A stretch of DNA of 52,140 nucleotides, from contig QQSA01000021.1 in NCBI GenBank assembly GCA_003602535.1, positions 15,924-68,063 on the forward strand. Direction: 5' to 3'. The DNA is from Candidatus Poseidoniales archaeon (GTDB taxonomy: Archaea > Thermoplasmatota > Poseidoniia > Poseidoniales > Poseidoniaceae). Below are positions 9,958 to 40,868 of the stretch, piece after piece (positions within the stretch are counted from its first letter, which is position 1; the number at the start of each line of letters is the position of its first letter). The notes below the pieces were generated by a model. That model did not search any database and was not told the origin of the DNA. It saw only the letters and a list, made by a program, of their open reading frames with translations. The position numbers were made by a program, and so were the translations under genes.

Positions 9958-12900
9958 CTTTCAAATTCGAACCAGTTTGATTCACTATTTGTTCGATACC
10001 ATTGCTTACCGTCATGCATTAGCCACGAGTATCCATTCTCATCGATTTGGTCTGCTATAGCATCTATTGGGGGCGCTGCTCCTATCTCGGGTAACAATTT
10101 CTGTTCTGGTTCAAAAAGTGGCGTTTGATCTACATCAGTAATCGGAGCAAACCCCTCAGTCATCATGTTTTCAGCATCTTGAAAATTATCATCTAACTCT
10201 GCTCTGATTCTTTCTAATCGAATACCTTGGTGAGGCCCAAGTAGGCGCAGCATCAGGCTATATTCCCACTTTAGAGCGACTTGCTCTAATTCATCTCTTG
10301 ATTTGGCATTCTCTAATTCTTCTTCATAGCGTGCGCATCTTCCATTACGTGTTACAAAGCCAAATAGAATCCATCCAAATATTGGTAGCCCTCCGAATAT
10401 TCCGATTAAATCCCATGCACCTAGTCCTATTTCTCCAATTTGGACTTCGAAACTATCTATCGGTGTATCATTAGGATCTAGTGGGTCAGTTCCAGAACGA
10501 ATCTCATCCGCATCAGTTACTAGATCATTATCGTCATCAGCATCTGAATTATCTCCAATACCATCTCCATCAGTGTCCAAGCATTCCTGTGCATTGTCCT
10601 TGAACGCATCAACCTCATCCATACATCCATCTGCATCTAAGTCGCCCGGGGAGGCTAGACGAGGTAAGATATCGATAGTATCGTTATATCCATCATTATC
10701 GAAATCGTTCAGATATGGGTCAGCATCTGTTCCATTTTGGTTATCTCCTAGTCCATCACCGTCTTCATCAATCCACTGAGTGGGATTGCTGGGAAACATG
10801 TCATACATTCTTCCTGCAGGATTATCTCCGTAACCATCACCATCTGCATCTGACCACTGTGTGGCATCATTACGAAAAGCATCAGGATTTGTTCCGCTTG
10901 GGTTGTCCCCATATCCGTCACCATCAATATCTCCCCATTGAGTAGGGTCGTTAGGGAATTTGTCAGCTCCAATACCCATTGGGTTGTCGCCCATTCCATC
11001 TCCATCCTTATCCTCGGCTTGAGTAGGGTCGTAAGGAAATGCGTCACTATCATCATCAATACCATCACGGTCAGAATCAGCGTGCCTGTTAGGATCATCA
11101 GGGTATGAATCTCCTAAGTTTCCTAGTGGGTTGTCTCCATATCCATCACCATCACTATCGTTTTGCTGAGTTGGGTCGAATGGAAATGCATCTAGTTCAT
11201 CAGAAACTCCATCTCCATCAGTGTCTAGGTATTCAGTCGGGTCATTAGGGAAGTCATCCCCTTCATCTGACCAGCCATCTCCGTCAGTATCTAAGCAGCC
11301 ATATCTATCGATTGTAGATGTGCCAAAGACAGTAGGGCATGAATCTCCAGCATTACCAAACTCTTCGTCACCATAGGTGTCACCATCTGTGTCGGACCAC
11401 TGTGTGGCGTCTAGATAGAACGCATCCGAGTTATCTCCAACCAAATCTCCATCAGTATCTTGCCATTCTGTGGGGTCATACTTGAATGGGTCAAGAATGT
11501 CTGGGCGGCCATCTCCGTCAGAATCAGGGCAGCCTTTCTCGAACTCCATTGTAGAGTTACCTGGGATTCTTGAGCAATAATCCTCGTAATCTTCGAAGCC
11601 ATCATTGTCATCATCATAATCTTCCAATGCGTCCATACAACCGTCACCATCTAAATCAGAAGTACTGGTTCTAATCCAGCCTGTCATACCTTTAGGACAA
11701 TTATCCAATGTGTCGTTTAATTGGTCATTATCATCATCATCATCTTCAATATCATCATGGCAGCCATCAGAATCATGGTCATTAATTGAGTTGGATATGA
11801 AGTAAGTTATTGATAGAGAACAATAATCTAGAACATCTACAACTAGGTCATTGTCATCATCGAAGTCCAATGAATTTGGGATTTCATCATTGTCAGAGTC
11901 TATGGTCATTATCGAGATATAAATCGATCTTGAACCTTGATTGATTAAATTGTTTCCGAAGGTGATTGATTGTGATTCAAATGTACCAGATAAATGCAAT
12001 TTACCAGATGAGTCTAACTCCATTGCTACCACAGATTCATGATTTGAACCTCCGGCAGACCGAGTCCAAGACGAAGTACCGTTTCTATCGAACTTTGTAA
12101 CAAATATGTCATCACTAGACCCTGTTGGTCCCCAATAAATTCCACCCCCAAAGGAAACAATATCAGAACCTGCGAATCCAGATACTATGATGTTGTTTGA
12201 ACCGTCGATTAAAACACTCCTTGGGTTAACATAGCAACTGCAATCAAAGTTTTTCGCCCATTCCCAAACTCCATTTTTGGATATTTTGGCCAAGAATCCG
12301 TTGGTCGAACCAGTACCTGAAAATGAATTATTTCCAATCTCTATTCCACTGTAATAATCTCCAATCAAAATTACATCAGAGTTGTTATCTAACTTTATAT
12401 CCCATATCCAATTTGTGCTCTGTGAATATGTAGGTGTCTGAACCCAATCTACTGAACCAGAATTGTTTATTTTCATAACTAAAAATTGCCTAAGAGAACC
12501 AGTTAAGGAATACTGAGCTATGTTTGTGTTACCGCTCCAATAACCTGACAAGTATGTGTTATCATTTTCATCAATAGCAATGGATGTGAAATACAGACCT
12601 TCTGATGCATATGTAGTTGAAGAAATTAAATTTCCTGCTGGGCTAAATTTTGATAGGATTCCATCATTACTTCCGTAGTTTGAGTACGCAACAACTATGT
12701 CGCCAGAAGATTCTACCGCTATTGAAAATGGACCTAAGGTATGACCTAGAGATGTAACCCATTCCCATGTTCCATTTGCTGATATTTTTGAGATATATCC
12801 CTCATGACTGATTGATGTAGTCGGATAAACATCGTAGTCCCCAAAACTAACTGTTCTTGAACCATATAACGATTTGAAGTATGATGTTATAATCAATCCA

Positions 12901-14162
12901 TCATTGTCATCAACTGCGATAGAACATCTATATTCTGGCCTTTGGCTGAAAGTTACAAGTGGCATTGTAGCATCCTGACCTTCAACTGAAGAGACCCATA
13001 AACAGGTATGGTTTGAAGAAAACTTTGCTACGAACGGTGCCACAGGAGTACTGGTAGATGATAAGTTGTGATATAAGTAGCAATTTTGTCCAAGATTGAC
13101 ATCGTCTCTAGTAGTCCCGTACACATAAATCTCTCCGGTGGAAGTAAATGCATAATCAATGATATCTTGGTCAGCGTTTGTTCCTAAAGAAATTCCTGAT
13201 TCCCAACCGAGAGGTTCGTTTATTGTGACATTAAATTTACCATTTGAGTTGGTTTGCCAGGGGTAGTCAAGGTGGCTGGTTTCGTTGAATACTGTGGCAG
13301 CAGCAGCTTGTTGCAGTTCTAGAACGAGGCCGTTTGATAGGCTTGTAGAATGAGATAGACCGACAGGATCGTTACCTGTAATCGTTGCATAGATTACCGC
13401 TGCAGCAAGATAAGAGCCGGAAAGTGAAGGATGACTTCCGTCACCTGTGTAGAGATTGTAGAACGTGTTTCCTGAATTAGTAGGCGTTCCACCCTCGGCT
13501 ACAATCTTGTCATGTATGTGCTCGAAAGCTAGGCCGACTGGTGCGACCCATGCGGTATCTCCATTGGCAGTAATGTTATCTCTGTAATCTAAGTAACCAC
13601 TTGCTAACTCATCTTGCATGTTTGAGAAATTAGAGAATCTTTGATTGTAGCCGTGCCAAGGATTAGCACCGTCTCCAGCTCGACGACCCCAAGTCATCAT
13701 CAGTACAGTCTCTCCACCATTATCTTCGATAACTTCAGCAAGTTCAACAGCGCCATCGTTGCTATTGATCCAATACGTATCTGTTCTTGGCAAGCCAGGA
13801 ACTTGGCTTTGGTCCTGCAATACAACCCAGTCCCATCCGCCATTGTTGAGTGTGGTATTCCATTGGTGGCCTGACGTTGCTACATTGCTAGCATGCTGTG
13901 ATAGTAACATACCACCACCATTGAGGCTTGAAACATTAGCCGGCTGTGAAGCAGCATTCATCACACCATCAACCAGATTGTGAAGTGAATTAGAGGCGAC
14001 GTAACTGTTTCCCATCAGAAGAATATCTGCTGGTCCTTGTCCTTGGCCGGGTCCTTCTTTAGATTCAAATTCCTCATCTAGGTAGTTCAAATCAACTGAT
14101 TGATATGGCATTAAGCACATCATGGCCATTACGGTTACCACAACCCAAGGCTTTGCTGTCAT
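9954..14162 (-). CDS. Large secreted, membrane-anchored protein: SGNH-like domain + SBBP-type beta-propeller + TSP3-like repeats
   Basis: Signal peptide; MGNSY, VVLQDQSQ and DGSHPS (SGNH-like); repeated F-x-x-K...G-x-W-x-W propeller blades; many DxDGDGxGDN repeats; TM (WDLIGIFGGLPIFGWILFGF) followed by a cytoplasmic module. Confidence 0.85.
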   Translation of the reverse strand: MTAKPWVVVTVMAMMCLMPYQSVDLNYLDEEFESKEGPGQGQGPADILLMGNSYVASNSLHNLVDGVMNAASQPANVSSLNGGGMLLSQHASNVATSGHQWNTTLNNGGWDWVVLQDQSQVPGLPRTDTYWINSNDGAVELAEVIEDNGGETVLMMTWGRRAGDGANPWHGYNQRFSNFSNMQDELASGYLDYRDNITANGDTAWVAPVGLAFEHIHDKIVAEGGTPTNSGNTFYNLYTGDGSHPSLSGSYLAAAVIYATITGNDPVGLSHSTSLSNGLVLELQQAAAATVFNETSHLDYPWQTNSNGKFNVTINEPLGWESGISLGTNADQDIIDYAFTSTGEIYVYGTTRDDVNLGQNCYLYHNLSSTSTPVAPFVAKFSSNHTCLWVSSVEGQDATMPLVTFSQRPEYRCSIAVDDNDGLIITSYFKSLYGSRTVSFGDYDVYPTTSISHEGYISKISANGTWEWVTSLGHTLGPFSIAVESSGDIVVAYSNYGSNDGILSKFSPAGNLISSTTYASEGLYFTSIAIDENDNTYLSGYWSGNTNIAQYSLTGSLRQFLVMKINNSGSVDWVQTPTYSQSTNWIWDIKLDNNSDVILIGDYYSGIEIGNNSFSGTGSTNGFLAKISKNGVWEWAKNFDCSCYVNPRSVLIDGSNNIIVSGFAGSDIVSFGGGIYWGPTGSSDDIFVTKFDRNGTSSWTRSAGGSNHESVVAMELDSSGKLHLSGTFESQSITFGNNLINQGSRSIYISIMTIDSDNDEIPNSLDFDDDNDLVVDVLDYCSLSITYFISNSINDHDSDGCHDDIEDDDDDNDQLNDTLDNCPKGMTGWIRTSTSDLDGDGCMDALEDYDDDNDGFEDYEDYCSRIPGNSTMEFEKGCPDSDGDGRPDILDPFKYDPTEWQDTDGDLVGDNSDAFYLDATQWSDTDGDTYGDEEFGNAGDSCPTVFGTSTIDRYGCLDTDGDGWSDEGDDFPNDPTEYLDTDGDGVSDELDAFPFDPTQQNDSDGDGYGDNPLGNLGDSYPDDPNRHADSDRDGIDDDSDAFPYDPTQAEDKDGDGMGDNPMGIGADKFPNDPTQWGDIDGDGYGDNPSGTNPDAFRNDATQWSDADGDGYGDNPAGRMYDMFPSNPTQWIDEDGDGLGDNQNGTDADPYLNDFDNDGYNDTIDILPRLASPGDLDADGCMDEVDAFKDNAQECLDTDGDGIGDNSDADDDNDLVTDADEIRSGTDPLDPNDTPIDSFEVQIGEIGLGAWDLIGIFGGLPIFGWILFGFVTRNGRCARYEEELENAKSRDELEQVALKWEYSLMLRLLGPHQGIRLERIRAELDDNFQDAENMMTEGFAPITDVDQTPLFEPEQKLLPEIGAAPPIDAIADQIDENGYSWLMHDGKQWYRTNSESNWFEFES

Positions 14163-17323: not shown

Positions 17324-17737
17324 ATGTCAGAACTATTAAAAAAAATGAACAAAGCACTAGGATTAGAATTGCGCGCGATAAATATGTATGCACATTATGC
17401 TGCTTATGTCAAAGGTTTACATCGATTGCAACTAGAACCGCTTTTCCAAAGTGAAGCAACCGAATCAATGTTACATGCAGCAACAATTCGGAATGCAATC
17501 GTCAAGCATGGCGGCAAATGTGTCACTGAGAGGGATTCTAATCCAATAAATCATACAGAAAATTACAGAGACATGTTACAGGGTGCCCTAGATACCGAAA
17601 TCAAAGCGGCTGCTACATATGGCGAACTTTTGCAAATGCTTGAAGATATAGATGATCGAGAATTGTATGATAGTGTTGAACAGATTTACTTAACAGAGTT
17701 AAGATCAGTCGAAGAAATGAGATTGCTTTTGAATTAA
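17324..17737 (+). CDS. Ferritin-like (bacterioferritin-type four-helix bundle) protein
   Basis: LGLELRAINMY, EATESMLHA, TEIKAAATY and LTELRSVEE follow the bacterioferritin helix pattern; 137 aa. Confidence 0.85.
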   Translation: MSELLKKMNKALGLELRAINMYAHYAAYVKGLHRLQLEPLFQSEATESMLHAATIRNAIVKHGGKCVTERDSNPINHTENYRDMLQGALDTEIKAAATYGELLQMLEDIDDRELYDSVEQIYLTELRSVEEMRLLLN

Positions 17738-20418
17738 TTTTCTAATCGCTGTAGTAAACCTACAGGTTTTTCATTTTCGAATTCTATATCTTCGATTTCC
17801 CATTCTTCGTCTTCATGTTCTTCTCTTAGCATCATGATGACTGAAGATGTGATGAAAAGAATAGTAATCGCCCACATCAGGAATGGAATCAAATCAAAGT
17901 ATGTGTCAAAATTCGTCCAATAGGTGAAGTAATCTTGATTTTGGACAATTGAACTTTCCATCCTTTCAGCATCATCGTCTTCAATTGTAGATGAGGACTT
18001 TATTTCGAATACCGGGACTAAATCGGACATTCGTGGCTCATTTTTCATGTCGTTTACATTTCTAGAATCAAGATAGAATCTGGTAGTTGAATCACCTGCG
18101 ATAATCAGTCCAGAAATTTGCTCTGACTTAATTTCAATCTCACTGCCCAGATAAATTGGCAATGCACTAGGTGTTGCGTCTAGCATTGAATATGTTTTCA
18201 ATAATTTAGCTTGTATCAATCGGTCAGTAGGTTCAACTGAAGCACTACAGACATCTACAGGTATGCCTTTCACAGTATCTGTGCCGCTACATTTGATATC
18301 GGCAACCGCATATCCTGAAACATCCACTTTGTCATCATCTCCAGTAATAAAACCGCCAGTTGTGCCGGAAATATCCTCTGGAGTTATAAGTCCAAATGTG
18401 TTGTCAAACATCCTGTCATTTCTCCACGATAATTGGCTTGATCCATCTTCTTCAATCAATTCACCTTTGTCGCAGCCTGGTCTTTCACCGGTACAAATTG
18501 TATAATTTGTACCATCTCCATTTTTGACTCCATTTGATCCATAGAAGGTTTTGCTAGACTCAAGTGATGCCCAGCCTACACTCACGTCATCAGGATTACC
18601 AGATTCTACATATGCATTGAATCGGTCATGCCATCCTAACAACCAACTGTTAACCGATTGTGTTAGGTAAGGTTCTACTCCAAAACTATCCGTCAACAAA
18701 TCACCTACAAAATCACCAAAAATCGAGTCGACTACTAGAGTGCGAAGTGCTTTAGCACTATTTTGGTCAATATCATAAGTGGATGCAATCACATCATTTC
18801 CCCATTGCTTAGTATTATTCGGGTCGGAAAATTCAGGAGGAACTTCTCCAGATAATTCTCCATATAGGAACAACATTGCTCCTTGTGTAGTAGTTACTCC
18901 CAATGGACCGTACAAAATCTCTGCAGATTGTTCAGGAGTTAGTGTGATAGGTGGTAAGGAATAGTTCTCTTCCCAAGAACCACCTTGGTTCAGACTATAT
19001 CCTAGGAAACCCCCATTGATTGGGTCATAATTTCCAAAGGTAGTGTTGACAAATTGTTTGGCATTCATAGTACCATTTCCGCCTAAAAGAGCCATCTGGA
19101 TAGATGATGATGATGCCGCCCATCCTGAAGCCCAAGTTCGTATTGAATTATATTGTTCATCATTCATACCAAAAGTGGACATTGCAATACTTGAATCTAG
19201 ATCAAGAAATTCGCTCAATCCGAAACCAGTACCTGCAGAATTTTTTGCTAAAAGTCCAAGTGGATTACTTGTTCCATCTCCATTCATCATCAAATTCATA
19301 CAATCTACGTTGGAGAAATCTACTCCCAATAAATTGTTTAATCTGTTGGCGATATCCTCACTATCTGTAAAAGGAGATCCTCCGCCATTAGATTGAAACT
19401 CTAGTCCGATTGCAATGTATAGTGACCAATCTCTGATTAGGGTTTGAGCATAATTTATCGACATCGTATCTCCGTTTCCATCCCCTGTTGTATCTACCAT
19501 CTCTGATGCGAGATATCCGTATGCTGTTGCCCTCTTTATAGAAGTTGAATTATCCGGGTCATCTTCAATTGCAGATAGAAGAGATTCCGGTTCTCCCATA
19601 GCAATGAAAGCAACCGGTCCTAAATCATCTAATAATGAAATATTGAAGTTGTTGTCTAATGGATGTAAAGATGAATAAAGAGCATCATCCAGGCCTCCAA
19701 GAAAATTTGCTACTGGAAGAATATTACCATCCAATGTATTTGGTAACAATACACTAACTTCACCGGATGCTTCAGCAGTTCCAAGGGCAGCATATCCATA
19801 AGATCCGAAACCAGCACCACCTACTGTATCAACCATAGATTGAATGAATTCAGATGTTGCAACTCCTGCTTGAGTCGTGTTCAAGTCTTGATTCATCATT
19901 CCACTTGCAAATCCAATCTTTGTCAAATCCATTATCCCATTGAATGCATTACCGGTTGCTCCAATCATTTGAGGCCTAAATTGGATATTCAACTGAGTTA
20001 GTTCATCATTACAAGAGTTTTCACTCTCTTCGGAACACTCAAATGTTTTCACTACATTGTAGGTTAAGTGACCTTTTTCACTATCATGTTCAATCAATGT
20101 TTTCTCTGAAGTAATGTCGTAAGTATAAGGCCCCATTTTTTGATATTTAGGCTGTGCTTGATTTTCTAGAACCTGTTGTAGGTTGGTAATTCCCCAGGCA
20201 TAATAATCACGAGTTGTAGTTGACTCCAACCAATCCTCCTCCTGAGTATCACAATCTCCGTCCTTTCCACATATAGTATCTAGAGGGAATGTTTCAAATT
20301 CTTCATTTACGGCTCCCTCAACAGCATTAGTGAAGACCAGTGGCAATAAAGTCAAATTAAGAAATAAACAAGTAAATCCAATTCCGATTAGCAACTTATC
20401 TCGAAAAAGTACCTGCAT
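17734..20418 (-). CDS. CD36/LIMP-2 (scavenger receptor class B)-like two-TM protein with a large internal insertion
   Basis: One TM at each end. YYAWGITNLQQV...KMGPYTY, TQSVNSWLLGWHD, YTICTG...GSSQLSW, ISGTTG, VKGIPV and EQISGLII are collinear with remembered CD36-family motifs. Start ATG 20418 (ORF extends to TTG 20442). Confidence 0.7.
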   Translation of the reverse strand: MQVLFRDKLLIGIGFTCLFLNLTLLPLVFTNAVEGAVNEEFETFPLDTICGKDGDCDTQEEDWLESTTTRDYYAWGITNLQQVLENQAQPKYQKMGPYTYDITSEKTLIEHDSEKGHLTYNVVKTFECSEESENSCNDELTQLNIQFRPQMIGATGNAFNGIMDLTKIGFASGMMNQDLNTTQAGVATSEFIQSMVDTVGGAGFGSYGYAALGTAEASGEVSVLLPNTLDGNILPVANFLGGLDDALYSSLHPLDNNFNISLLDDLGPVAFIAMGEPESLLSAIEDDPDNSTSIKRATAYGYLASEMVDTTGDGNGDTMSINYAQTLIRDWSLYIAIGLEFQSNGGGSPFTDSEDIANRLNNLLGVDFSNVDCMNLMMNGDGTSNPLGLLAKNSAGTGFGLSEFLDLDSSIAMSTFGMNDEQYNSIRTWASGWAASSSSIQMALLGGNGTMNAKQFVNTTFGNYDPINGGFLGYSLNQGGSWEENYSLPPITLTPEQSAEILYGPLGVTTTQGAMLFLYGELSGEVPPEFSDPNNTKQWGNDVIASTYDIDQNSAKALRTLVVDSIFGDFVGDLLTDSFGVEPYLTQSVNSWLLGWHDRFNAYVESGNPDDVSVGWASLESSKTFYGSNGVKNGDGTNYTICTGERPGCDKGELIEEDGSSQLSWRNDRMFDNTFGLITPEDISGTTGGFITGDDDKVDVSGYAVADIKCSGTDTVKGIPVDVCSASVEPTDRLIQAKLLKTYSMLDATPSALPIYLGSEIEIKSEQISGLIIAGDSTTRFYLDSRNVNDMKNEPRMSDLVPVFEIKSSSTIEDDDAERMESSIVQNQDYFTYWTNFDTYFDLIPFLMWAITILFITSSVIMMLREEHEDEEWEIEDIEFENEKPVGLLQRLEN

Positions 20419-30160: not shown

Positions 30161-30191
30161 TTCATATGCCAAACTATGTTCGCATGCTGTG

Positions 30192-33100
30192 ATGAACATG
30201 CGCAAGACGATACCACTTCTATTGGTGACAATCCTTCTCATGCAATCTCTACTAGTTTTGACTGTGGATGAAGTCGAAGCTACAATGGGCCGCGGTGGCT
30301 CTTCTGATGATTTCTCAGTTTCAGAAATAGAATTCAATTCTTCTGAAGAAAATCATTGGATTCAGCCTGATGGAAGTGTGGTAGTTTACATTGCTAAGGG
30401 CGATATTGTTGATATTTCCGTTGAAGTTCGTCGAGGAGGTGGGGCATTAACAGGTTCTAGTGCTACTGTCTCGGTTGAAATGGTTCATCCAATCGGATAT
30501 GTTATGAATTCAACTTCCTGGGAAACAGTCCCTATGCTCGGAGGTCAATCTTACACCGATTCATTCACTTGGGATGCATATGTTGCTCATTCATATCTGA
30601 ATGTTTCATCTAACGAATTGTCAGGTGGAATAATAATTAGAGCCACAGTTTTCAATTCTGCAGATGATCGAAATGAGAACGATGTGATGGAGAAGTCATT
30701 GCCTGTTGCTATTGCTCAGGATGACATGGATGCTGAAGGCGATCCTCGTGACCAAGCTCTACCAACCGCTTCCAAAGCAACTTTCTATGGTGGAGAATAT
30801 CCAATCGACGGCAGTGATGCTACAGGAATTGGAATCTGGCAGGAAGACGGCACTTCTTCTGCAGTTGGTTCTGCAAATTGGCGTCATTCAAATGCAGGTT
30901 CAGATTACCCTTCTGCATCACGAAGCCGTCTCGTATTCGCATTCAGAGGAGCAGATAGTAACTGTGGTTACGGTGCCTCTTTGGATGGTGGTCTGTCACA
31001 ACAATACATTCAGTGGATGTGTAAGGTTCAACTCAACTCAGCAGGATTAGTTTCTGCGCAAATGCACGCCCAAACATGGGGCCAAATGGGTGCAGGGGAC
31101 ATGGTCGCACTAGAATTATGGAGAGGAAACGGTGCTCCTGAAAATACGATTTACCATAATTTTGCTGAAGATATGCCAAGTACAGCAGCTGGTTCTTGGA
31201 GTAATATTTCTTGGGATCCTACTGACCAACTTGGTGGTCACTCGTGGTCATATGGTATATTATTCCAATCAGATGGTTCAGGTGCTTCAAGTGGAATGCA
31301 TGTAGATGACTTCGTAATGTTTGGTATTGAGAAAGTTAGTGAATATACTTTAGATATCGATTGTGATAACCCTACTGGCGGATACACCACGCCTCCAAAT
31401 ACAATTGTTCCAATGTATTGTACAATTACCAATAATGGATACATGGGTGCTCAGGTAAGATTACAATCAAACATATCGAATACAACTTGGATGAATCCAA
31501 GTCTGCCGATGATTAGAATTGATAGCGACAATCCTAATCAGCACGGAACCAATGTAATTCTGCCAGTAATTCCTGGAGGAAATACTTCGGAAATGTGGAT
31601 TAATCTTTCAATACCTGCGGGAGCAGATGTCCAACAACAAGTTTGGCAAGTTTGGTGGGAAGATGCAGGCGGTACACAATTGGGTGAAATGGGCAGGATT
31701 GCTACTGATATTGCGATAACGGAACAGTATGGTGTTCACCTTTCATCTACCGCTCCTCTTCTTGCAACATCTTTGCTTCCTGGTGAGTCGGCAGATATAC
31801 CGTTTAAATTACAGAATGCAGGTAACAGAGAAGCAGGATTTACAGTTACATCTAATTTCCAAGCAGACAACTGGGTTGCATATGTTACCGATTTAAATCA
31901 CCAAATTGTCCAGATGCCAATGCCTCTTGCTAAGGGCGAACAATTAGAATTGTTACTGAACGTAACAGCTCCTGAAGATTCATCTCCTGGTGAGATTCCT
32001 TTCTCGTTGAGAGCAGTATGTCCTTCTTGTGGACAATCATTATTTGGAAATGATGTGATTTCTAAGAAGATAGATGTTCCAGTTCTCAGAGAACTTTCAA
32101 TGGCTGCTGAGGAATTGTATGTTGAAGCACCTGCTAACGGGAACACTAGAATTGTGTATGTAGATTTATTGAATCTTGGAAATGATGATGAAGCCTATTC
32201 TCTCGATTTAGTAGAGTCGAATTGGCGCCTACAAGCTTCTCTTTCAGCTGATGAAACCCCGGTCTTAGATGCATGGGATGGCGAAACTAGTATTGCTTTG
32301 AATCTACCAATGCCAATCGGACTTGCTCCTGGCTTATACACTGCTAGAATTACAGCCTCTAGTATCGATGATCCATCGGTCCAAGAGCAAATTACAATCA
32401 ATGTCGAGGTGACAAATACTTCATCTGCAGGAGTTTCAGATGAAGTTGCAGATCAATCATATATTCCAGGTGGAGATCCACAATCTATGAGATTTGAAAT
32501 TACTAACAATGGAAATAAGGCTGATAGATTCGTTATGAGTATGGATGCTCCAGAGGGAATGAATGCACAATTCGAACAACTGATTGGAGAAAATTTGACC
32601 CCTCTACTCAATCCAGGAGAATCTTACAATGTTACAGTTACCTTCACATTTGATGATGATGTCAACGGCCAACTAGTTCTAAAGGTAATTGCAACAAGTG
32701 TAAATGACAATGATGTCACATCGGATGGTACATGCACTTATCTGGTCGGTTCACAGAACTGGCTGCGAATTATCTCAACAGAATCAATCATGATTTCCGA
32801 ATCTGGTAAAGTTGAAGTTGTTGTGAGAGTCAGGAATCAATATGATGCAGGTCAATCTGTAACTATGTCAATTGATCAACAAGGTAACAATAAATGGTAC
32901 AGTGCGTCAATAAAGAATACAGATAGGGATTTCTGGTTGGAAGTGGAAGGTGAAAGAGAAGTTACAATCATTTTGGATGTTCCATCTTCTGTTCTAGAAA
33001 CTCTTGATGAAGATTATGTTGATACTTATGTGAAAGTATGGGCCAAATCAAATTCTGTAGAAGAGTCAGCTTCTCTAGATTTACCAATCACACTGAAGAG

Positions 33101-33542
33101 TGTAGAATCAACAGATGATGAATCTGCAGGCTCTGGTTCAACAGATTGGGTCTCTGTTAGTATTTGGATTGTAGGAGCTGCTCTAATCATTTCTTTGCTT
33201 GGTGTATTATTGATGGTTATCAATAGTACCGAAGAAGAGGAAGCACAGCAATGGGACGACAATGGATATGAAGATAACTTGTCAGCAACTTACGGTTCAG
33301 TCGCTGCAGCACCTACGGTTGGTGCGATGGGAATTGAAAAAGCCGTTCCTGAAATATCTCCTCCAACCGTAGTCAATGTGGCTAATGTAAACGATGTGAC
33401 CACATATGATAGTGCTACATCAGGAGATGTTAACTCCAATTCTGAAGTGACTGGGCCTCCAGTACCAGAGGCAGGCTTACCAGAAGGTTGGACCATGGAT
33501 CAATGGGCGCATTACGGTCAACAATGGCTAGATAGTCAATAA
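30192..33542 (+). CDS. Large secreted, membrane-anchored surface protein (jelly-roll/MAM-like domain + COG1470/NEW3-like Ig repeats)
   Basis: Signal peptide; GMHVDDF; repeated N-x-GN units (LQNAGN, LNLGN, ITNNGN); TM; C-terminal PPVPEAGLPEGWTMDQWAHYGQQWL. Confidence 0.85.
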   Translation: MNMRKTIPLLLVTILLMQSLLVLTVDEVEATMGRGGSSDDFSVSEIEFNSSEENHWIQPDGSVVVYIAKGDIVDISVEVRRGGGALTGSSATVSVEMVHPIGYVMNSTSWETVPMLGGQSYTDSFTWDAYVAHSYLNVSSNELSGGIIIRATVFNSADDRNENDVMEKSLPVAIAQDDMDAEGDPRDQALPTASKATFYGGEYPIDGSDATGIGIWQEDGTSSAVGSANWRHSNAGSDYPSASRSRLVFAFRGADSNCGYGASLDGGLSQQYIQWMCKVQLNSAGLVSAQMHAQTWGQMGAGDMVALELWRGNGAPENTIYHNFAEDMPSTAAGSWSNISWDPTDQLGGHSWSYGILFQSDGSGASSGMHVDDFVMFGIEKVSEYTLDIDCDNPTGGYTTPPNTIVPMYCTITNNGYMGAQVRLQSNISNTTWMNPSLPMIRIDSDNPNQHGTNVILPVIPGGNTSEMWINLSIPAGADVQQQVWQVWWEDAGGTQLGEMGRIATDIAITEQYGVHLSSTAPLLATSLLPGESADIPFKLQNAGNREAGFTVTSNFQADNWVAYVTDLNHQIVQMPMPLAKGEQLELLLNVTAPEDSSPGEIPFSLRAVCPSCGQSLFGNDVISKKIDVPVLRELSMAAEELYVEAPANGNTRIVYVDLLNLGNDDEAYSLDLVESNWRLQASLSADETPVLDAWDGETSIALNLPMPIGLAPGLYTARITASSIDDPSVQEQITINVEVTNTSSAGVSDEVADQSYIPGGDPQSMRFEITNNGNKADRFVMSMDAPEGMNAQFEQLIGENLTPLLNPGESYNVTVTFTFDDDVNGQLVLKVIATSVNDNDVTSDGTCTYLVGSQNWLRIISTESIMISESGKVEVVVRVRNQYDAGQSVTMSIDQQGNNKWYSASIKNTDRDFWLEVEGEREVTIILDVPSSVLETLDEDYVDTYVKVWAKSNSVEESASLDLPITLKSVESTDDESAGSGSTDWVSVSIWIVGAALIISLLGVLLMVINSTEEEEAQQWDDNGYEDNLSATYGSVAAAPTVGAMGIEKAVPEISPPTVVNVANVNDVTTYDSATSGDVNSNSEVTGPPVPEAGLPEGWTMDQWAHYGQQWLDSQ

Positions 33543-33603
33543 TTATCTCTAGCGATGGATTGAAGGCGTAATGCCCGTGGGAACAACTACTGAGGCACTG
33601 ATT

Positions 33604-35226
33604 ATGTATGGAAATGGACAAGCACCGATATTCATTCTAAAAGATGGAGTTCAGCGAACAAGAGGTCGCAGTGCTCAATCTAACAACATTGCAGCAGCAA
33701 AGGCTGTTGCAGACGCAGTAAGAAGCACTCTTGGTCCTAAGGGAATGGACAAAATGCTAGTTGATAGCATGGGTGATGTGGTAATCACCAATGATGGTGC
33801 CACTATATTGAAAGAAATGGATATTGAACATCCTGCTGCAAAGATGATTATCGAAGTTGCTAAGACTCAAGAGCAGCATTGCTATGATGGGACAACATCT
33901 GCAGTAGTTCTCTCGGGTGAATTGTTGAAGAGATCTGAAGATTTGATTGAACAAAATGTTCACCCTACTGTAATTTGTGAAGGTTTCAGACTTGCTGCTG
34001 AAAAAGCAGTAGGATGTCTTGAATCCCATGGTATTTCAACAAAGAATGATGATTCTGTTTTGATGGAAGTTGCTAAGACTTCCCTTACAGGTAAATCTGC
34101 GGGCGCAGTAAAGTCATTTTTGGCAGATATCTGTGTTAGAGCGGTCAATTCAGTTGGTACAATTGAGGATGGAGAAAGAATGGTCGACCTTTCAGATATT
34201 AAGGTTGAAAAGCGCCAGGGAGGATCTATCAAAGATAGTACCCTTGTGGATGGAATTATTTTGGACAAAGAAAGAGTTCATGCAGGTATGCCACGTTCAA
34301 TTTCCGACGCCAAGATTGCTTTGATTAACAGTGCGATTGAAGTTAAGAAGACAGAAGTCGATGCTAAGATTCAGATCACAGATCCGTCAATGCTTGCATC
34401 ATTCCTCGAAGAAGAAGAGAATTACATTCGAACTTTAGTAGAGAAAATACAGGCTAGTGGTGCTAATGCAATCATTTGTCAGAAAGGTATTGACGACCTT
34501 GCTCAGCACTACATGTCAAAAGCAGGAATCTTCGCAATACGCCGTGCTAAAAAGAGTGACATGGAAGCACTTTCTAAGGCAACAGGAGGTCGAGTCGTTA
34601 CCAATATTGATGATTTGACATTCGAAGATTTGGGATCAGCTGCTAAAGTAGAAGAGCGCAAGATCGGCGAATCAGATATGACCTTCATTACCGGTTGTCC
34701 TGAAGCCAAATCGGTTTCAGTTCTACTAAGGGGCGGAACCGAACACGTAGTCGACGAGATTCGTCGTGCTTTCGATGATGCAGTAGGCGTAGTTTCAGTC
34801 GCATGGGAAGATGGTGCAGTTCTGACTGGTGGAGGTAGTGTTCTAGCCGCTCTATCTCGTGATTTGAGGGCTTATGCTGAATCGATTGGTGGTCGTGAAC
34901 AAATGGCAATCGAAGCGTTTGCAAGTGCACTGGAAATTATTCCTAGAACTCTTGCGGAAAATGCAGGTTTAGATCCAGTGACGACAATAATCGAATTAAG
35001 AAAATCTCATGCTGATGGAAATGCAAATTCCGGAATCAACGTTGAAGAAGGCGGTGTAATGGATATGTTTGAAGCAAATGTTTTGGAGCCCCAGAGGGTA
35101 GTAGAACAAGCAATTCAGTCAGCAACAGAGACTGCAATTATGATTCTTAGAATCGACGATGTAATTTCTTCCAAAGGAATATCTGGTGAAGATATGATGG
35201 GTGGAATGGACGATTTCCACATGTGA
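33604..35226 (+). CDS. ths: Thermosome (group II chaperonin) subunit
   Basis: [44 protein letters not shown] and ILRIDDVI. Confidence 0.97.
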
Positions 35227-35263: not shown

Positions 35264-35328
35264 GCACGAACCTTCAAAGACTACATCCTAGTGGAATGTA
35301 TTGCTCAGCGTGAGCATTAGGTGAACTC

Positions 35329-37299
35329 ATGCCAACCATTGCTAAGGTCTGGATCGAGGAAGATTGCATCACATGTGATGCATGTCAGGATATTTTGCCG
35401 GAAGTGTTCGAGGTAACAGACGACACAAGTCAGATCAAAGCAGATGTTCGAGAGGACGGGGCATTCGACCGCAATACTGGACTTTCTGCGATTAAAAATG
35501 AGTTCCGTTCAGAGTTCTCCGATTTGATTGAAGAAGCAGCTGATGCTTGTCCTGTTGAGATTATTAAATTTGAATATGAAGGTGGAGTTGCTGAAGAAGT
35601 TGCTGAAGAAGTTGCACCTGCTGCGTCTGAAGCAGTAGTTGCCCCGGTTGCAGTAGCAGATGCTGGTGCAGATGCAGGGGTTCTAGCAGGTGTACTTTCA
35701 GGAGATCGCAGCCTAGCAATCTTCTTTGGTTCACAAACAGGAAATGCAGCAGGCTTAGCGGAAAAAACAGCTAAGCGTGCAGTCGCTTACGGTCTTGAAC
35801 CAACCGTCATAGATATGGATGGATACGACCAAGCACAATTCTCTTCACACAAGCGTATTTTAATCATCACTTCAACATGGGGTGAAGGTGAGATGCCAGA
35901 TAATGCTGATGAGCTTTGGAATGCAACAGTAGCAGCAAACCCGTCTCTTGCTGGTGTACACTATTCAGTATGTGCTATTGGAGATTCATCGTATGATGAA
36001 TTCTGTAAGGCAGGAGAAGATTGGGATCAAAAGTTCGCATCTTTAGGTGCAACCTCAATCCTAGAGATGAAAATGTGCGATGTAGATTTCGATGAACCTT
36101 GGAATGAGTGGGTAACAGAAGTTCTTCCAAGAATTGCTTGTGTAGATTCTTCAGGAGTATTCCATGAAGATTTAGTTGAAGCGATGATTGCATACGGTGC
36201 TGGTGATGAAGATGATGAAGGCGCTGATGGCGACTTCAATCCACCGACAATCGAACAGGCTCCGATGTCATTGACTATGCGCATATTCAGATATGATCCA
36301 ATTAAAGCCCAATCAGGTTACGACACAATTGCTGTAGCTTTGCCAGGGCATGCTACAATCGAAGATGCATTGGTTGCAATAAAGAGAGAAGCCGATGGCT
36401 CTCTGACATTTAGGAGTGGAAGTATTTCTGGATTGAATCCGTTGACTGGAGTGAAGGCTAATGGAAGAATACTGCCTGCAGATACTACTAGAATCAGTGA
36501 TTTAGTAAGTGATGGAGGGACATTAACCGTCGAACCATTACCTGGTTACGAAGTTCTGAAAGATTTGATGGTTTCTTACGACCGATATGATGACTCTCGT
36601 GCTAATTCAAAACCTTGGTTAGAAGCAGATCCTCGTCAAGGGGAGAGACTTGCAAGTGGTGCTCCGATGGGAGTTATGGAATCTGCTCAAGCAACCAGAT
36701 TACACGCTTTAGCAGATGTTGGCTCGCTGCAATTAGTCAATGCAATGTCAGATACATTTGATGTTGATGACGTATACTCTGGACCGGGCATCGCTCTTCA
36801 AAGATGGGTTAGAAGTCAAGATCCACGTTCTGGAAATTCTCATGTCAAGAAGATGTTTGAACTGATGCAAAGAAAGGGCGGCGTATGGGACGAAGCAGAT
36901 ATTTCATCAATTCAAAGACATGGCATTGATGGATCACAAGCTGCAGATTCGCTTTACGCTGCAAGGTCTCGATTACTAGCAGAATACAAATTCACTGGTA
37001 AGAGCGGTAGATTGGTTAAGGTGTACTCACGTTCGGTAAAAATGTCAGGTAACGTCAATGAAACTACACTTTATCGTTCAGTATTGGGGCCATTAGGACT
37101 CGGTTCTAATATTATGAACGGGGTATCATTACGAATGATGCTAGGATTCACCAGAAATGGAGGTCCAATGATGAGAGGATTCCAAGGAATGCTTGTACCT
37201 CCTGCTGGCATTGGAAAGATTCCTGATATGTTCAATAGTAAGGTTGTTAATCATCACGAAGTAGTTGCAATTTTCAATGAATTAGATAGGAGATTCTGA
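35329..37299 (+). CDS. Fusion: ferredoxin + flavodoxin + cysteine-free SdhB/FrdB-like domain
   Basis: CITCDAC...ACP single-cluster ferredoxin; GSQTGNA, STWGEGEMPDNA and GDSSYDEFC flavodoxin; RIFRYDP..DALVAIKREADGSLTFR..VEPLPGYEVLKDL SdhB fold with no Cys in the last ~345 aa. Confidence 0.85.
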   Translation: MPTIAKVWIEEDCITCDACQDILPEVFEVTDDTSQIKADVREDGAFDRNTGLSAIKNEFRSEFSDLIEEAADACPVEIIKFEYEGGVAEEVAEEVAPAASEAVVAPVAVADAGADAGVLAGVLSGDRSLAIFFGSQTGNAAGLAEKTAKRAVAYGLEPTVIDMDGYDQAQFSSHKRILIITSTWGEGEMPDNADELWNATVAANPSLAGVHYSVCAIGDSSYDEFCKAGEDWDQKFASLGATSILEMKMCDVDFDEPWNEWVTEVLPRIACVDSSGVFHEDLVEAMIAYGAGDEDDEGADGDFNPPTIEQAPMSLTMRIFRYDPIKAQSGYDTIAVALPGHATIEDALVAIKREADGSLTFRSGSISGLNPLTGVKANGRILPADTTRISDLVSDGGTLTVEPLPGYEVLKDLMVSYDRYDDSRANSKPWLEADPRQGERLASGAPMGVMESAQATRLHALADVGSLQLVNAMSDTFDVDDVYSGPGIALQRWVRSQDPRSGNSHVKKMFELMQRKGGVWDEADISSIQRHGIDGSQAADSLYAARSRLLAEYKFTGKSGRLVKVYSRSVKMSGNVNETTLYRSVLGPLGLGSNIMNGVSLRMMLGFTRNGGPMMRGFQGMLVPPAGIGKIPDMFNSKVVNHHEVVAIFNELDRRF

Positions 37300-37308
37300 G
37301 GTGAAATT

Positions 37309-38169
37309 ATGGTTAAGTATTCTTATTATCCTGGAAATGTAGCCCGTCAATCCTCAAGAGAAGTTGAAGATACAATCCAGCCTCTTTGCCGCAGTTTAGG
37401 CATTGAGTTAATCGAAATGGTGGGATATAATGGAGATGGTGGAAACATCATCAAGCAAGGAAATAGGGATTTACAATTGGCTCTTAATGCTCGTAATCTT
37501 GCAATCGCAATGAAGAACGGACATGACATTATCACCCCTTGTGCTTCAGCCCAAGGTATTCTTCATGATTCGCTCAAAACTTTCCGAGAGAACCCAATAG
37601 CATTAGCAGATGCAAATCGCGTACTTGAGATGACTACAGGAATGACTCTAGATGTTTCAGAAATAACGACCAACCATTTGCTACATGTCCTTGTAGATGA
37701 AATTGGTTTGGATAAAGTGGAAGCAGCAGTTGTCAATCCTCTGGATATGGATATTGCTTGCTATTATGGACCTCATATGCAAATTGAAGGTGCATGTGGT
37801 AATGATGATGCCTGGAATCCAAGTTACATGGAGCAACTGATAACTGCATTAGGTGGACGCCCAGTTGAATACAAGACGAAGACTTCTAGCGTTGGTAATC
37901 CATCACTTCTTTCATTAGGGGATTCTGTGATGAAAATGACAGCTCGAGTTCTAAATGATGCCAAAAAGGCAGGAGCTCAAGTTTTGGTTAGTGCTTGTAC
38001 CCAATCACACTCAAATCTAGATTCATATCAAGGAAAAGCAGGACGTGTTTCTGGTAAGGACACAGATATTCCAGTTGTAAACTTCACTGAAATTATTGCA
38101 TTTGCTTTAGGCCATTTCACCGATCGTTTTGCACAGTTGAAAACACGTGCAATGTTAATTGGTTCCTGA
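37309..38169 (+). CDS. HdrB/SdhE-like double CCG-domain protein with degenerate cysteine motifs
   Basis: KYSYYPG, LGIELIE, LNARNLA, TPC, YYG, L...LGG and NLD match HdrB, but the CCG motifs read GDG and SVG. Confidence 0.85.
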   Translation: MVKYSYYPGNVARQSSREVEDTIQPLCRSLGIELIEMVGYNGDGGNIIKQGNRDLQLALNARNLAIAMKNGHDIITPCASAQGILHDSLKTFRENPIALADANRVLEMTTGMTLDVSEITTNHLLHVLVDEIGLDKVEAAVVNPLDMDIACYYGPHMQIEGACGNDDAWNPSYMEQLITALGGRPVEYKTKTSSVGNPSLLSLGDSVMKMTARVLNDAKKAGAQVLVSACTQSHSNLDSYQGKAGRVSGKDTDIPVVNFTEIIAFALGHFTDRFAQLKTRAMLIGS

Positions 38170-40740
38170 TTAACCGTGCAAGAATTTGTACAGTTCTTTG
38201 GCTTGTATGGATGACACTCCTTCAATATCAGTAAGTGCTTGCTCACTAATTGTACATAATCCCATAATGTCTCCTGCAATTTCCATTATTCGGTTTGCAG
38301 TTGTTATTCCGATTCCTGGCAATTCTGCCAATATTTTAGTTCTCTGAAACATCACTTCTTTATCCCATCTATTTGCTAAAACACCATCCTCTGATTCTCC
38401 GTTCATTATTGACATTATTTCTGCGGATGCAGCTTTAATTGATGCCTTTTCAGCATCAATCATTTTTCTCTTGGTATGAATCATCAATAAGTCGAGAAAT
38501 CTGGATTCCCTTTTTGCAACAATTGAAACAAACCTTGCAGTTTCTTCCGGCGACCCTGTCATTAGGACCGGTAGCCCAAGATCTAGTGTAATCCATGCCA
38601 TAGCGCCATGAACTGCATTAGGATGTACTCTCTGAGTTTCAATAGATTCTACGATTAACAATGGCCTGGGTGCAGCATTGTGTAATCTTCTGGCTTGCTG
38701 TATCAATCGTCCATCAATTAATGAATCAATTAAATCTCTAGCACTTTTTCTTTCGATTAGTATTCGATCTGAAATTCTAATGTCGCCTACAGTAAGGTTT
38801 TCTAAACTAATTTCGTGACCATATAACTTTAGCATTGCAGGCAAGGTTGAATTTCCCTCTCTATGGTCAATTGTAATCAAAGTCTTTGAGTCGGCTTCAA
38901 TACTCATTGAATCTACTTCGGTTTGAGCAGCAGATGATGTGTCATTTTCTTTTTCTCTGGAATGACTAATTGTTCCATCAAGTACTGGTTTCCACCATTC
39001 GGACTTACTATCAGAAGTATTGTTAGAAAACTCTGTTAGAGACATTTGTGCCCTAGGTCTGTTTGATGGTTCCGAATTCTTCACATTGTTTGTCTTTGCT
39101 TGTTTTACGACATTTTCAGAAACATGTTCTTTTTCTCTAAACAATCTTTCTTCTTCCTTTTTTATGAACGATTCAGCATCTTTTCCATCGATTGTGAAAG
39201 ATGCCAAAACATCATTTTTTGGCTGTGCCCTTCTAGGTAATCTCGATTGTTTTTGCAATCCTTGTAAAGTTCTATACATCAGCTGCTCGCGACGTAAAGA
39301 TGCCTGTTGCACATACTCGTCACGAGTACCTTTTGCTACCAAAATATGGACATCTCCATCTTTTTGTCTAGCGGTTCTACCTCTTCGCTGTATTGCACGT
39401 ATTGCACTTGGTACTGGTTCGTAAAGAATCACACTATCTGCCGCAGGTACATCCAATCCCTCTTCTCCGACACTTGTAGCAACTAGAACATTGATTTCAC
39501 CTTCTCGAAATCTGTCTAATTGTGCAATCTGATCTTTTTGCTTCATTCCAATTTGACTTCCTTTGGTAGTCTGTCCAACAAACCTACCAGGTTTGATGCC
39601 TGGTTGGGAATTCAGAATTTCCATGAGGTTGTCAACAGTATCTCGATATTCAGTAAAAATGATTACTTTACCATCACCAGATAATCCTTGTTTTACTAAT
39701 TTCTTTACCAATTCAGGTTTAGGATGACACTCATCGCTTTCACGATCTTCTCTTAGTAAATCAGCTACTGGTGTCAATGATAGGAATCTCTTAGTTTTGC
39801 GATCTTTCTCTATTTTGGCTCTTTCAAGATATTTGATTGCACATGTTAATCCTTGAGTATCTAATAAATCCAATAATCTATGCAATCTTCTAAGGTCGCC
39901 AATTCGTTTTGCTGCATCGTATCCTCTTGCATCCCCTCTTCCTATTGCTGCGCTTGCCCTTCTGTGAGCTTCTTCAATCGCAGCAGTGGTGACTCTTCCA
40001 GACTTCACCAAGAATCCTGACCTCATCAAAAATTCTGCTTCTTCCGCTTCAAGAATTCGCAATGGCCTGATTTTACTGAGTAATTCATCAGGGATATTCA
40101 GTTCATGTTTTTCGATATCCATTGAGGTAATGTATGGTTGGACAAGGTCATCTTCTCTCTTAGTAACATGAAGTCTTTCAATTCCTAATCTTTGTATGAC
40201 TTCTAGGACTTTAGATGATTTCACTCCTGGTGAAGCAGTTGCAGCTAAAATGTGAGCCTTAGATGAAGCTTCTAGATACATATCTCCCAATTGGGCCATC
40301 GAATCTGAACCGGTAGCGTGATGTGCTTCATCAACGATTAGAAGATCGATATCTGAAAGCAAAATTCTTCCATTTCTCGCATCGTTTCTGATAACGTGGG
40401 GAGTTGCCATAACCATTTTCGCATCCTTCCAAATAGTCTCTCTTTTTGCAGGACGATCTTGGCCGGTTAATGTGACAATTTTGTCACTATCTAGATTGAT
40501 AAATTCTCTGGCCATTCTAGCCTGTTGAGCAACCAAACCAGTTGTAGGGGCTACCAATACTATTTTTCCAGGGCCATCTAATGACTCTGCCATAGCCATC
40601 CATTGAACTGCAGTTTTTCCTAAGCCGGTAGGCATTACGAGTAGTGTTGATCCTGAAATTGCTTGTTTGGCAGCGATTAATTGGTATGCTCTCGCTTCAA
40701 CACCATCTCTGAGTTGAGGGTGCGTCAGCGACGGTGTCAT
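38170..40740 (-). CDS. hef: Hef helicase-nuclease (FANCM-like SF2 helicase + ERCC4 nuclease + HhH)
   Basis: MPTGLGKT, DEAHH, TASPG, SVGEEGLD and QRRGRTAR; ERCC4 IDHRE...GD...ERKSARD; LPGIG HhH. Start likely ATG 40740. Confidence 0.93.
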   Translation of the reverse strand: MTPSLTHPQLRDGVEARAYQLIAAKQAISGSTLLVMPTGLGKTAVQWMAMAESLDGPGKIVLVAPTTGLVAQQARMAREFINLDSDKIVTLTGQDRPAKRETIWKDAKMVMATPHVIRNDARNGRILLSDIDLLIVDEAHHATGSDSMAQLGDMYLEASSKAHILAATASPGVKSSKVLEVIQRLGIERLHVTKREDDLVQPYITSMDIEKHELNIPDELLSKIRPLRILEAEEAEFLMRSGFLVKSGRVTTAAIEEAHRRASAAIGRGDARGYDAAKRIGDLRRLHRLLDLLDTQGLTCAIKYLERAKIEKDRKTKRFLSLTPVADLLREDRESDECHPKPELVKKLVKQGLSGDGKVIIFTEYRDTVDNLMEILNSQPGIKPGRFVGQTTKGSQIGMKQKDQIAQLDRFREGEINVLVATSVGEEGLDVPAADSVILYEPVPSAIRAIQRRGRTARQKDGDVHILVAKGTRDEYVQQASLRREQLMYRTLQGLQKQSRLPRRAQPKNDVLASFTIDGKDAESFIKKEEERLFREKEHVSENVVKQAKTNNVKNSEPSNRPRAQMSLTEFSNNTSDSKSEWWKPVLDGTISHSREKENDTSSAAQTEVDSMSIEADSKTLITIDHREGNSTLPAMLKLYGHEISLENLTVGDIRISDRILIERKSARDLIDSLIDGRLIQQARRLHNAAPRPLLIVESIETQRVHPNAVHGAMAWITLDLGLPVLMTGSPEETARFVSIVAKRESRFLDLLMIHTKRKMIDAEKASIKAASAEIMSIMNGESEDGVLANRWDKEVMFQRTKILAELPGIGITTANRIMEIAGDIMGLCTISEQALTDIEGVSSIQAKELYKFLHG

Positions 40741-40868
40741 AGGTGCTATTGTGCGTCGGTGGCTCAAGAGGATTTGCATAGGAGGCTCTTCAAATTCATC
40801 TTCAACCAAAATGCTTGAAGACTGTCAATTACAATATGGCTCCAGCGTCCCTATGCAGCGTTCTTCAC

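Follow-up and report, generated by a model that had tools for sequence, protein, structure and literature searches.

Two described enzymes come closest to the operon studied here, the type E succinate dehydrogenase (SDH) SdhABEF of Sulfolobus and the 8-methylmenaquinol:fumarate reductase (MFR) SdhABE, in which a long-form SdhB is accompanied by an adjacent SdhE with two CCG domains. B-like and HdrB-like modules are likewise brought together in TfrAB, the thiol:fumarate reductase of methanogens, where an SdhB-like part and an HdrB-like part are fused; the clusters of TfrB are retained, and its partner TfrA is catalytic. In HdrB, the two clusters reportedly need the five cysteines of each CCG motif, as is said in the HdrABC-MvhAGD structure paper. 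Finally, a relay from flavin mononucleotide (FMN) to flavin adenine dinucleotide (FAD) is known within the FAD_binding_2 family. Here we analyze a two-gene operon in a 52,140-nucleotide stretch of contig QQSA01000021.1 (the window), from a Candidatus Poseidoniales archaeon of the family Poseidoniaceae and the phylum Thermoplasmatota. Gene 1 encodes a ferredoxin, a flavodoxin and an SdhB-like core in a single chain, and gene 2 an HdrB/SdhE-like protein (Table 1). As in the type E enzymes and MFR, a long-form SdhB-like protein stands next to one with two CCG-derived domains, but in the window these proteins lack the 12 SdhB ligands and eight of the ten CCG cysteines, and their NCBIfam scores fall far under the curated cut-offs (107.7 against 500; 49.5 against 344). 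The operon also differs in adding the ferredoxin and flavodoxin at the N-terminus and in having no sdhA; the candidate flavoprotein, encoded elsewhere, is devoid of a dicarboxylate site. Gene 2 is homologous to HdrB over its full length, yet retains one cysteine per CCG motif, and the TfrB model NF004898 matches gene 1 weakly (E 1.7e-5). The operon is derived from SDH, yet fails the defining iron-sulfur and catalytic features of that enzyme.

The loss of ligands in gene 1 is total, since residues 272-656 of its translation contain zero cysteines. Within this part, the Pfam model Fer2_3 matches residues 317-419 with 39.5 bits (cut-off 27), and NCBIfam SdhB models match residues 313-520 with E values of 5e-15 to 2e-11, under their curated cut-offs (TIGR00384, 44 bits against 88; PRK05950, 55.2 against 228; PRK12576, 49.5 against 344). 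We aligned the core with 21 further orthologs and with five cysteine-bearing SdhBs of about 320 residues taken from an exhaustive representative search. The strings GSISGLNPLT, LPAD, DVGSLQLVNAMSD and WDEADISSIQRHG align by column with SCRSAICGSC, LAC, DCILCGACYGQC and WSCARCYFCSQVCP of the ~320-residue SdhBs, and the 12 ligand columns (365, 370, 373, 385, 464, 467, 470, 474, 522, 525, 528 and 532) hold no cysteine in any of 42 orthologs. The match between the family and these long SdhBs begins at the first strand, ends at the last helix and takes in a C-terminal extension in which the motif NETxL is common to both, and the family's own extension goes beyond that of type E-like long-form SdhBs with the motifs GFTRxG...PPAGxGK...HHEVVxxFN. 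An AlphaFold2 model of residues 300-656 has a mean pLDDT (predicted local distance difference test) of 78.4, with core residues 297-332 below 50. When the core model was searched against the PDB with Foldseek, it retrieved the iron-sulfur subunits of complex II and quinol:fumarate reductase (QFR), with a best E of 1.4e-14 and target template-modelling (TM) scores mostly of 0.74-0.84, the lowest being 0.67; at ranks 1-32, all listed chains but one are complex II/QFR B subunits, and rank 21 is an integrative SDHB-SDHA model. At the level of the predicted structure, it is confirmed that the gene 1 core has the SdhB fold, with a 2Fe-2S ferredoxin-like N-terminal domain and a helical C-terminal domain. 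An initial annotation, made from the letters of the DNA alone, had claimed a full SdhB-like fold with zero cysteines: the Foldseek matches bear out the fold, the ligand columns bear out the missing cysteines in the window and in 42/42 orthologs, and the description of gene 1 as a whole was right in every detail that we checked.

Far from being an oddity of one genome, this cysteine-free protein is a fixture of its order. We used the SdhB-like part as the query against 301 sampled genomes of the phylum, 84 of which match. All 41 other genomes of the window's family and all 22 of the order's second family give strong matches (E <= 1e-62, 36-86% identity); the eight sampled genomes of the sister family give no match at all, and the other 20 matches in the phylum are canonical-type SdhBs, 21-37% identical. 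Gene 2 lies directly downstream of gene 1, both frames being intact, in all 42 genomes examined, and the 14 long loci, together with two further ones, all show one gene order: large surface protein, thermosome, gene 1, gene 2, convergent Hef, L3, L4. More than 600 database proteins share the architecture of gene 1 at E <= 0.001. The ratio of nonsynonymous to synonymous substitution rates (dN/dS) was taken from the genome pair G037-G081 (dS 0.46), seven of the eight pairs being saturated at synonymous sites in all or some segments. It amounts to 0.046 for gene 1 and 0.028 for gene 2; the SdhB-like part stands at 0.037 (0.038 and 0.037 for the halves of the core) and the C-terminal extension at 0.011, while the linker is the least constrained part of gene 1, at 0.19 in this pair and 0.19-0.27 wherever dS is measurable. 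From these low values it follows that the cysteine-free parts are at least as constrained as the ferredoxin and the flavodoxin. The proposal of a maintained pair of pseudo-subunits, as opposed to decay, is thus sustained by intact adjacent frames in 42/42 genomes, presence in 63/63 other sampled genomes and dN/dS values of 0.03-0.05. Also, because the iron-sulfur ligands were lost and purifying selection is strong, the SdhB-like core and the gene 2 product would act as a protein scaffold and not as an electron wire.

In one genome, G149, the two genes form one 987-residue frame without the last ~27 residues of gene 1 (L044:3871-6834). This frame resembles the TfrB fusion, and may be a deletion or an assembly error; no fused form beyond it (1/42 genomes) was found among the longer database proteins.

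The loss of ligands is less complete in gene 2. Its best NCBIfam matches are SdhE NF042965 (the MFR anchor, E 7.6e-31) and HdrB TIGR03288 (E 1e-30), both under their cut-offs; solved HdrB chains (9sfi_C, 8rvv_B and 5odc_B) align with residues 3-269 at E 6.6e-27 to 1.3e-22, and the Pfam CCG model recognizes the first domain only, with 23.3 bits against a cut-off of 20.6. The two cysteines kept out of the ten of the aligned HdrB are C78 and C230, the first of each CxxC pair, and both are cysteine in 42/42 orthologs, so that each former CCG motif keeps one. All 42 have a degenerate C-terminal motif. The N-terminal one (C10, C42, C43, C78, C81) is complete in six, partial in another six and gone in 30, and since the six orthologs with a complete motif span both families of the order, the loss of cysteines looks stepwise and was probably repeated. 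Of the suggestion that gene 2 encodes an HdrB/SdhE-type double CCG protein, the homology over the full length stands, and the integrity of the CCG motifs does not.

The relatives of the core indicate where the pair came from. In a quick maximum-likelihood tree of 82 rows, assessed only by the Shimodaira-Hasegawa-like approximate likelihood-ratio test, the cysteine-free cores fall into a single clade on a long stem (support 100), placed with the long-form SdhBs, one of the closest of which is annotated as a Nitrospirota SdhB; the organism's own canonical SdhB falls in a group of mostly short-form SdhBs. This placement argues that the pair is not a recent copy of the resident SdhB and descends from a long-form, CCG-partnered type. 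The nearest cysteine-bearing relatives are SdhBs of ~300-380 residues having the same C-terminal extension, in agreement with the link to type E enzymes drawn in the initial annotation. By analogy with long-form SdhB and SdhE, the conserved extension most likely binds the gene 2 product.

An SdhB-like and an SdhE-like protein call for a flavoprotein, and a search of the genome for SdhA-type domains gave three proteins: the canonical SdhA, a NadB-like protein and an orphan of 545 residues that we denote SdhA'. The own-genome copy of SdhA' contains a masked stretch (a run of X in the translation). It matches FAD_binding_2 (E 4.9e-40) and Succ_DH_flav_C (E 9.4e-16), and scores 251.8 bits with TIGR01812 against a cut-off of 567.3. 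Its FAD-binding glycine motifs are invariant in 21 orthologs. The motifs RSHT, QYHPTG, LMTEGCRGEGG, AHYTMGG and HGANRLG of Escherichia coli FrdA read GSVN, SNTPLG, ILPAGLLSAGA, PSLTIGG and HGVNALPG in SdhA', so that valine replaces the histidine of RSHT, threonine that of YHPTG, PAGLL the residues TEGCR, serine the histidine of AHYTMGG, and alanine the arginine of GANRLG; the threonine of YHPTG is likewise replaced. We take these positions to be dicarboxylate-binding, proton-shuttle and covalent-FAD residues, the last being the histidine of RSHT. Among the 63 other genomes of the order, 62 have a strong ortholog of SdhA' (E <= 1e-65); beyond the order, no match is better than 2.1e-44 (31% identity). 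No SdhB stands beside SdhA' at the loci examined. We modelled SdhA' (540 residues) with the cysteine-free core (357 residues), both from the complete genome G037, using paired alignments of 21 rows. The complex scored 0.93, against 0.00 for the best of three controls; on this scale, 58 of 80 solved complexes and two of 110 mismatched pairs attain the mark. The model runs share at least 93% of contacts, with partner pLDDT of at least 72. On the side of SdhA', the modelled interface is enriched in conserved residues (23/95 versus 61/445, odds ratio 2.0, p 0.01).

Next to SdhA' lies a conserved neighbor, a four-helix membrane protein of ~450 residues, present at 11 of 11 further loci in one set and at 10 of 13 in another and syntenic with SdhA' in most genomes of the order. 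Located upstream of SdhA' (L061:104-1447, L069:3018-4370), it has four N-terminal helices, a C-terminal beta-sandwich and the invariant His/Asp-rich motifs HAPTHHPT and AHLDPD. It belongs to no Pfam or NCBIfam family, and its Atlas matches are hypothetical Thermoplasmatota clusters only; the PDB holds no informative match to its AlphaFold2 model (pLDDT 83.7), only Ig-like sandwiches with a query TM score below 0.2.

The explanation that we favor, with as much doubt as belief, is that genes 1 and 2 specify the B-like and E-like subunits of a second complex peculiar to the order, whose ancestor was a CCG-type (type E-like) SDH and in which the iron-sulfur wire is gone and tethered carriers serve the flavin site. 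That SdhA', the SdhB-like core and the SdhE-like protein belong together, each of them stripped of SDH chemistry and each confined to the order, is a proposition to which we would give an even chance. Judging by their motifs, the redox-competent parts of the operon are the fused 4Fe-4S ferredoxin, on a putatively flexible linker, and the FMN flavodoxin. The scaffold would dock the FAD protein SdhA' and bring the tethered carriers within reach of SdhA' and of outside partners. The path of the electrons would link an external ferredoxin- or flavodoxin-using enzyme, the tethered ferredoxin (or flavodoxin), FMN and the FAD site, where neither succinate nor fumarate would be the substrate. There is some likeness here to the diflavin enzymes of the CysJ and cytochrome P450 reductase (CPR) type and to the FMN_bind-FAD_binding_2 fumarate and urocanate reductases, in that gene 1 has a CysJ-like FMN domain possibly serving an FAD domain of the SdhA family. 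Compared with the FMN_bind-FAD_binding_2 enzymes, its FMN domain is of a different kind and sits on a dead SdhB scaffold, not on the flavoenzyme, the relay itself being putative.

Several observations weigh against this explanation. With the 2Fe-2S site empty, FMN may not come within electron-transfer distance of FAD. SdhA' and the operon never lie side by side, genome G240 (94% complete) yielded no SdhA', and the co-distribution of the two is the pattern of any core gene of the order. Since SdhA:SdhB complexes have already been solved, the score of 0.93 may show only that the core is like SdhB. Also, the interface shows no enrichment in conserved residues of the core (17/78 versus 73/279, p 0.82), and rate covariation across 13 genomes gave no signal, with a residual r of 0.16 between SdhA' and the core versus 0.31 between SdhA' and the unrelated Hef.

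A fuller form of the favored explanation, which we put forward only tentatively, is that of a complete 'iron-stripped' descendant of complex II: a heterotrimer of SdhA', the ferredoxin-flavodoxin-SdhB-like protein and the SdhE-like protein, in which subunits B and E lost all their iron-sulfur clusters and subunit A its succinate site, their place being taken by an FAD-FMN relay fed by a tethered, exchangeable ferredoxin or flavodoxin. If this were true, the heterotrimer would be a new kind of ferredoxin/flavodoxin-dependent flavoenzyme, and might let iron-limited archaea of the surface ocean spend or generate low-potential electrons, for instance from 2-oxoacid:ferredoxin oxidoreductase. An iron-sparing role of the operon is plausible; bearing on it, the ferredoxin keeps its cluster ligands, some lineages swap the first carrier to a flavodoxin and another swaps the flavodoxin to a second ferredoxin, and some gene 2 orthologs hold a full CCG motif.

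The carriers themselves are in good order. The ferredoxin ligands C13, C16 and C74 are cysteine in 38 of 42 orthologs and C19 in 36, those without them being forms that lack the domain or shortened open reading frame (ORF) calls. The flavodoxin domain matches the FMN part of the NCBIfam cysJ model TIGR01931 (E 6.7e-37), and its motifs FGSQTGNA, presumably the FMN phosphate-binding loop, and STWGEGEMPDNA are conserved, the former in at least 90% of the 42 orthologs. With Pfam domains above their cut-offs and motifs kept, the claim of an intact ferredoxin and flavodoxin fused to the SdhB-like fold holds. Gene 1 is the sole match to Flavodoxin_1 and the sole match to Fer4_13 in its genome (92% complete), which also holds one POR_N-type 2-oxoacid:ferredoxin oxidoreductase gene and two small frames resembling dicluster ferredoxins. 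We counted carrier motifs in 54 sequences (44 from loci and 10 cluster representatives): 41 are ferredoxin-flavodoxin, five flavodoxin-flavodoxin (in both families), two ferredoxin-ferredoxin (one protein counted twice) and one ferredoxin only, and the remaining five have fewer N-terminal domains, some of them probably being ATG-first ORF calls that came out short, or fragments. The double-ferredoxin form (P0250) is a Poseidoniales record with the same synteny, all other matches to it covering the ferredoxin domain only; for the ferredoxin-only form (P0251), no relative was found in genome or metagenome contigs. The carriers vary, by exchange of ferredoxin and flavodoxin, while the scaffold does not. 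The start of the ferredoxin domain (KVWIEEGCITCDAC-type) shows 52-69% identity to small ferredoxin-like frames in Holophagaceae, Planctomycetota and Kuenenia records (L088-L165), a hint that this type of ferredoxin is widespread in bacteria.

Such carriers might be the whole point of the operon. It is possible, if somewhat unlikely, that the ferredoxin-flavodoxin module works as a stand-alone tethered carrier and that the cysteine-free SdhB/SdhE pair is a scaffold for docking or localization, for instance a monotopic membrane attachment inherited from type E SdhE, placing the carriers by some other acceptor or donor with no SdhA-like partner. In line with this, the ferredoxin and flavodoxin are the sole intact redox parts of the operon, the first carrier may be either of the two, as expected of a shuttle that meets outside partners, the 2-oxoacid:ferredoxin oxidoreductase-type gene (POR_N) is there, and no signal of conservation or rate ties the core to SdhA'. 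It also counts in its favor that the SdhE subunit of type E enzymes is regarded as a monotopic anchor in one study (PMC2754724). What a stand-alone carrier leaves unexplained is the maintenance of a full SdhB fold, including the surface that faces SdhA, at a dN/dS of 0.04, and the retention across the order of an orphan and equally altered SdhA'; the contrast between 0.93 for the complex model and 0.00 for the controls speaks against it as well.

Another candidate partner is the real SDH, and the initial annotation had proposed co-assembly with an SdhAB/CCG complex. The genome encodes its canonical SDH on contig C110 as a 278-residue membrane protein followed by a 617-residue SdhA, with the usual HPTG/TEGxRGEGG/HYxMGG/HGANRLG motifs, and a cysteine-complete SdhB of 255 residues, and this operon contains no CCG subunit. 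Nor is there any stand-alone SdhE-type protein besides gene 2 in the genome, at 92% completeness, the only other CCG proteins being fusions of Fer4 and CCG of 934 and 676 residues. These Fer4-dicluster and double-CCG proteins (C117:16301-19105 and C101:761-2791) have intact CCG scores, from which it appears that the organism still makes CCG clusters elsewhere; one of them carries a NarI-like membrane part. Because the resident SDH has no CCG subunit, the proposed co-assembly lacks its CCG complex, and with a non-CCG anchor in place SdhA' is the better candidate for a partner. In general terms, the pseudo-subunits could still join the canonical SdhA and SdhB, or a CCG-type complex, as an alternative iron-sparing port or scaffold: with its SdhB fold, the core might in principle accept the canonical SdhA, and the family descends from SdhB/SdhE-type subunits. 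This we find improbable, given that the resident operon has its own anchor and complete SdhB, that electrons from succinate oxidation would have nowhere to go if a functional SdhA were paired with a cysteine-free B subunit, and that a dedicated, altered SdhA' exists.

We see a similarly slim chance that the scaffold is not a redox enzyme at all and that the carriers serve as sensors, be it in a redox- or iron-sensing regulator, in an assembly factor (a pseudoenzyme titrating or chaperoning flavoproteins), or through a dithiol or metal site at C78/C230 of gene 2. The invariance of these two cysteines fits such a role, as does the loss of canonical chemistry from all three SDH-like proteins, and an isolated zinc site besides the cluster has been reported for SdhE, in the study already cited (PMC2754724). 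Against it, Pfam and NCBIfam find no DNA-binding or signalling domain in these proteins, and constraint on the FMN loop, the FAD motifs and the cysteines of the ferredoxin is as strong as in enzymes. Finally, decaying pseudogenes or an assembly artefact, for which only the missing cysteines could be invoked, are refuted by presence in all 63 other sampled genomes of the order, intact frames in 42/42 genomes, dN/dS of 0.03-0.05 and the over 600 database proteins that share the architecture.

The operon may well have a new function. The system is not described in the full-text literature that we searched, which does not cover supplementary gene lists where these genes may be named. Excerpts of an archaeal fusion survey mention Poseidoniales and SdhA fissions and not the gene 1 fusion (PMC11237513), and those of the main metabolic survey of Marine Group II deal with canonical succinate dehydrogenases only (PMC6336850). 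Marine Group II, the archaea that all carry this operon, is described, in the excerpted literature, as being among the most abundant planktonic archaea, with none in culture (PMC6336850, PMC13096325). As a universal and constrained core operon carrying the genome's only flavodoxin and only Fer4_13 ferredoxin domain, it likely matters for energy metabolism. For the evolution of iron-sulfur proteins, the operon is apparently nature's own example of an entire multi-cluster electron wire taken out of a protein scaffold that was itself kept, with intermediate states still alive in the complete N-terminal CCG motif of some lineages and in the carrier swaps. Public annotations name these proteins 'heterodisulfide reductase subunit B', 'succinate dehydrogenase cytochrome b subunit' or 'flavodoxin domain-containing protein', names that would mislead metabolic reconstructions.

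Table 1. Features of the operon and of its candidate partner; positions are those of the window unless a contig is named.
Feature	Position	Strand	Description and basis
Gene 1	35329..37299	+	656 aa: ferredoxin, linker, flavodoxin, cysteine-free SdhB-like core, conserved C-terminal extension
Shine-Dalgarno-like AGGTGA of gene 1	35319..35324	+	4 nt ahead of start; read from sequence
Single-cluster 4Fe-4S ferredoxin domain, CxxCxxC...CP	35356..35568	+	residues 10-80; Fer4_13 37.5 bits (cut-off 24.5), Fer4_15 33.1 bits (Pfam)
Ala/Glu/Val-rich linker	35584..35703	+	residues 86-125; poorly conserved
Flavodoxin (FMN) domain, CysJ/MioC-like	35719..36096	+	residues 131-256; Flavodoxin_1 101.5 bits (cut-off 25)
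SdhB-like core	36265..36918	+	residues 313-530; none of 12 cluster cysteines; Fer2_3, SdhB NCBIfam models, Foldseek
C-terminal extension	36919..37296	+	residues 531-656; most conserved part; dN/dS 0.011; alignment with long-form SdhBs
TGAGGTGA junction	37297..37304	+	gene 1 stop codon overlaps Shine-Dalgarno-like site of gene 2
Gene 2	37309..38169	+	286 aa, HdrB/SdhE-like, both CCG motifs degenerate
SdhA'	contig C118, L055:1480-3117, L061:1501-3138, outside window		FAD_binding_2 + Succ_DH_flav_C

At the level of the locus, the layout is that of a tight operon. A spacer of 9 nucleotides separates the two genes, the junction reading ...TTC TGA GGTGAAATT ATG, and the word GGTGA is common to the sites upstream of gene 1 and gene 2. 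Both ORFs and the overlap of stop codon and GGTGA word were found in the sequence, so the two-gene operon with a stop/Shine-Dalgarno junction was correctly read at the outset. A thermosome gene (33571-35226) lies upstream, and a convergent Hef-like helicase/nuclease gene (38170-40809) downstream, followed by a ribosomal-protein cluster. The stop codon of this Hef-like gene, on the minus strand, abuts the end of gene 2 with no terminator spacer. As for expression, contigs from four metatranscriptome runs, at 80% likeness, gave short pieces only, mostly on a conserved thermosome motif, and metatranscriptome X1 gave low depth over bins 35432-35753, neither of which says anything firm. The window also holds very large ORFs bearing signal peptides, which probably encode surface proteins (30189-33542, 2141-4813, 6469-9957, 9954-14162 and 17734-20418). 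The first of these is syntenic with the operon across the order, yet only 26-45% identical.

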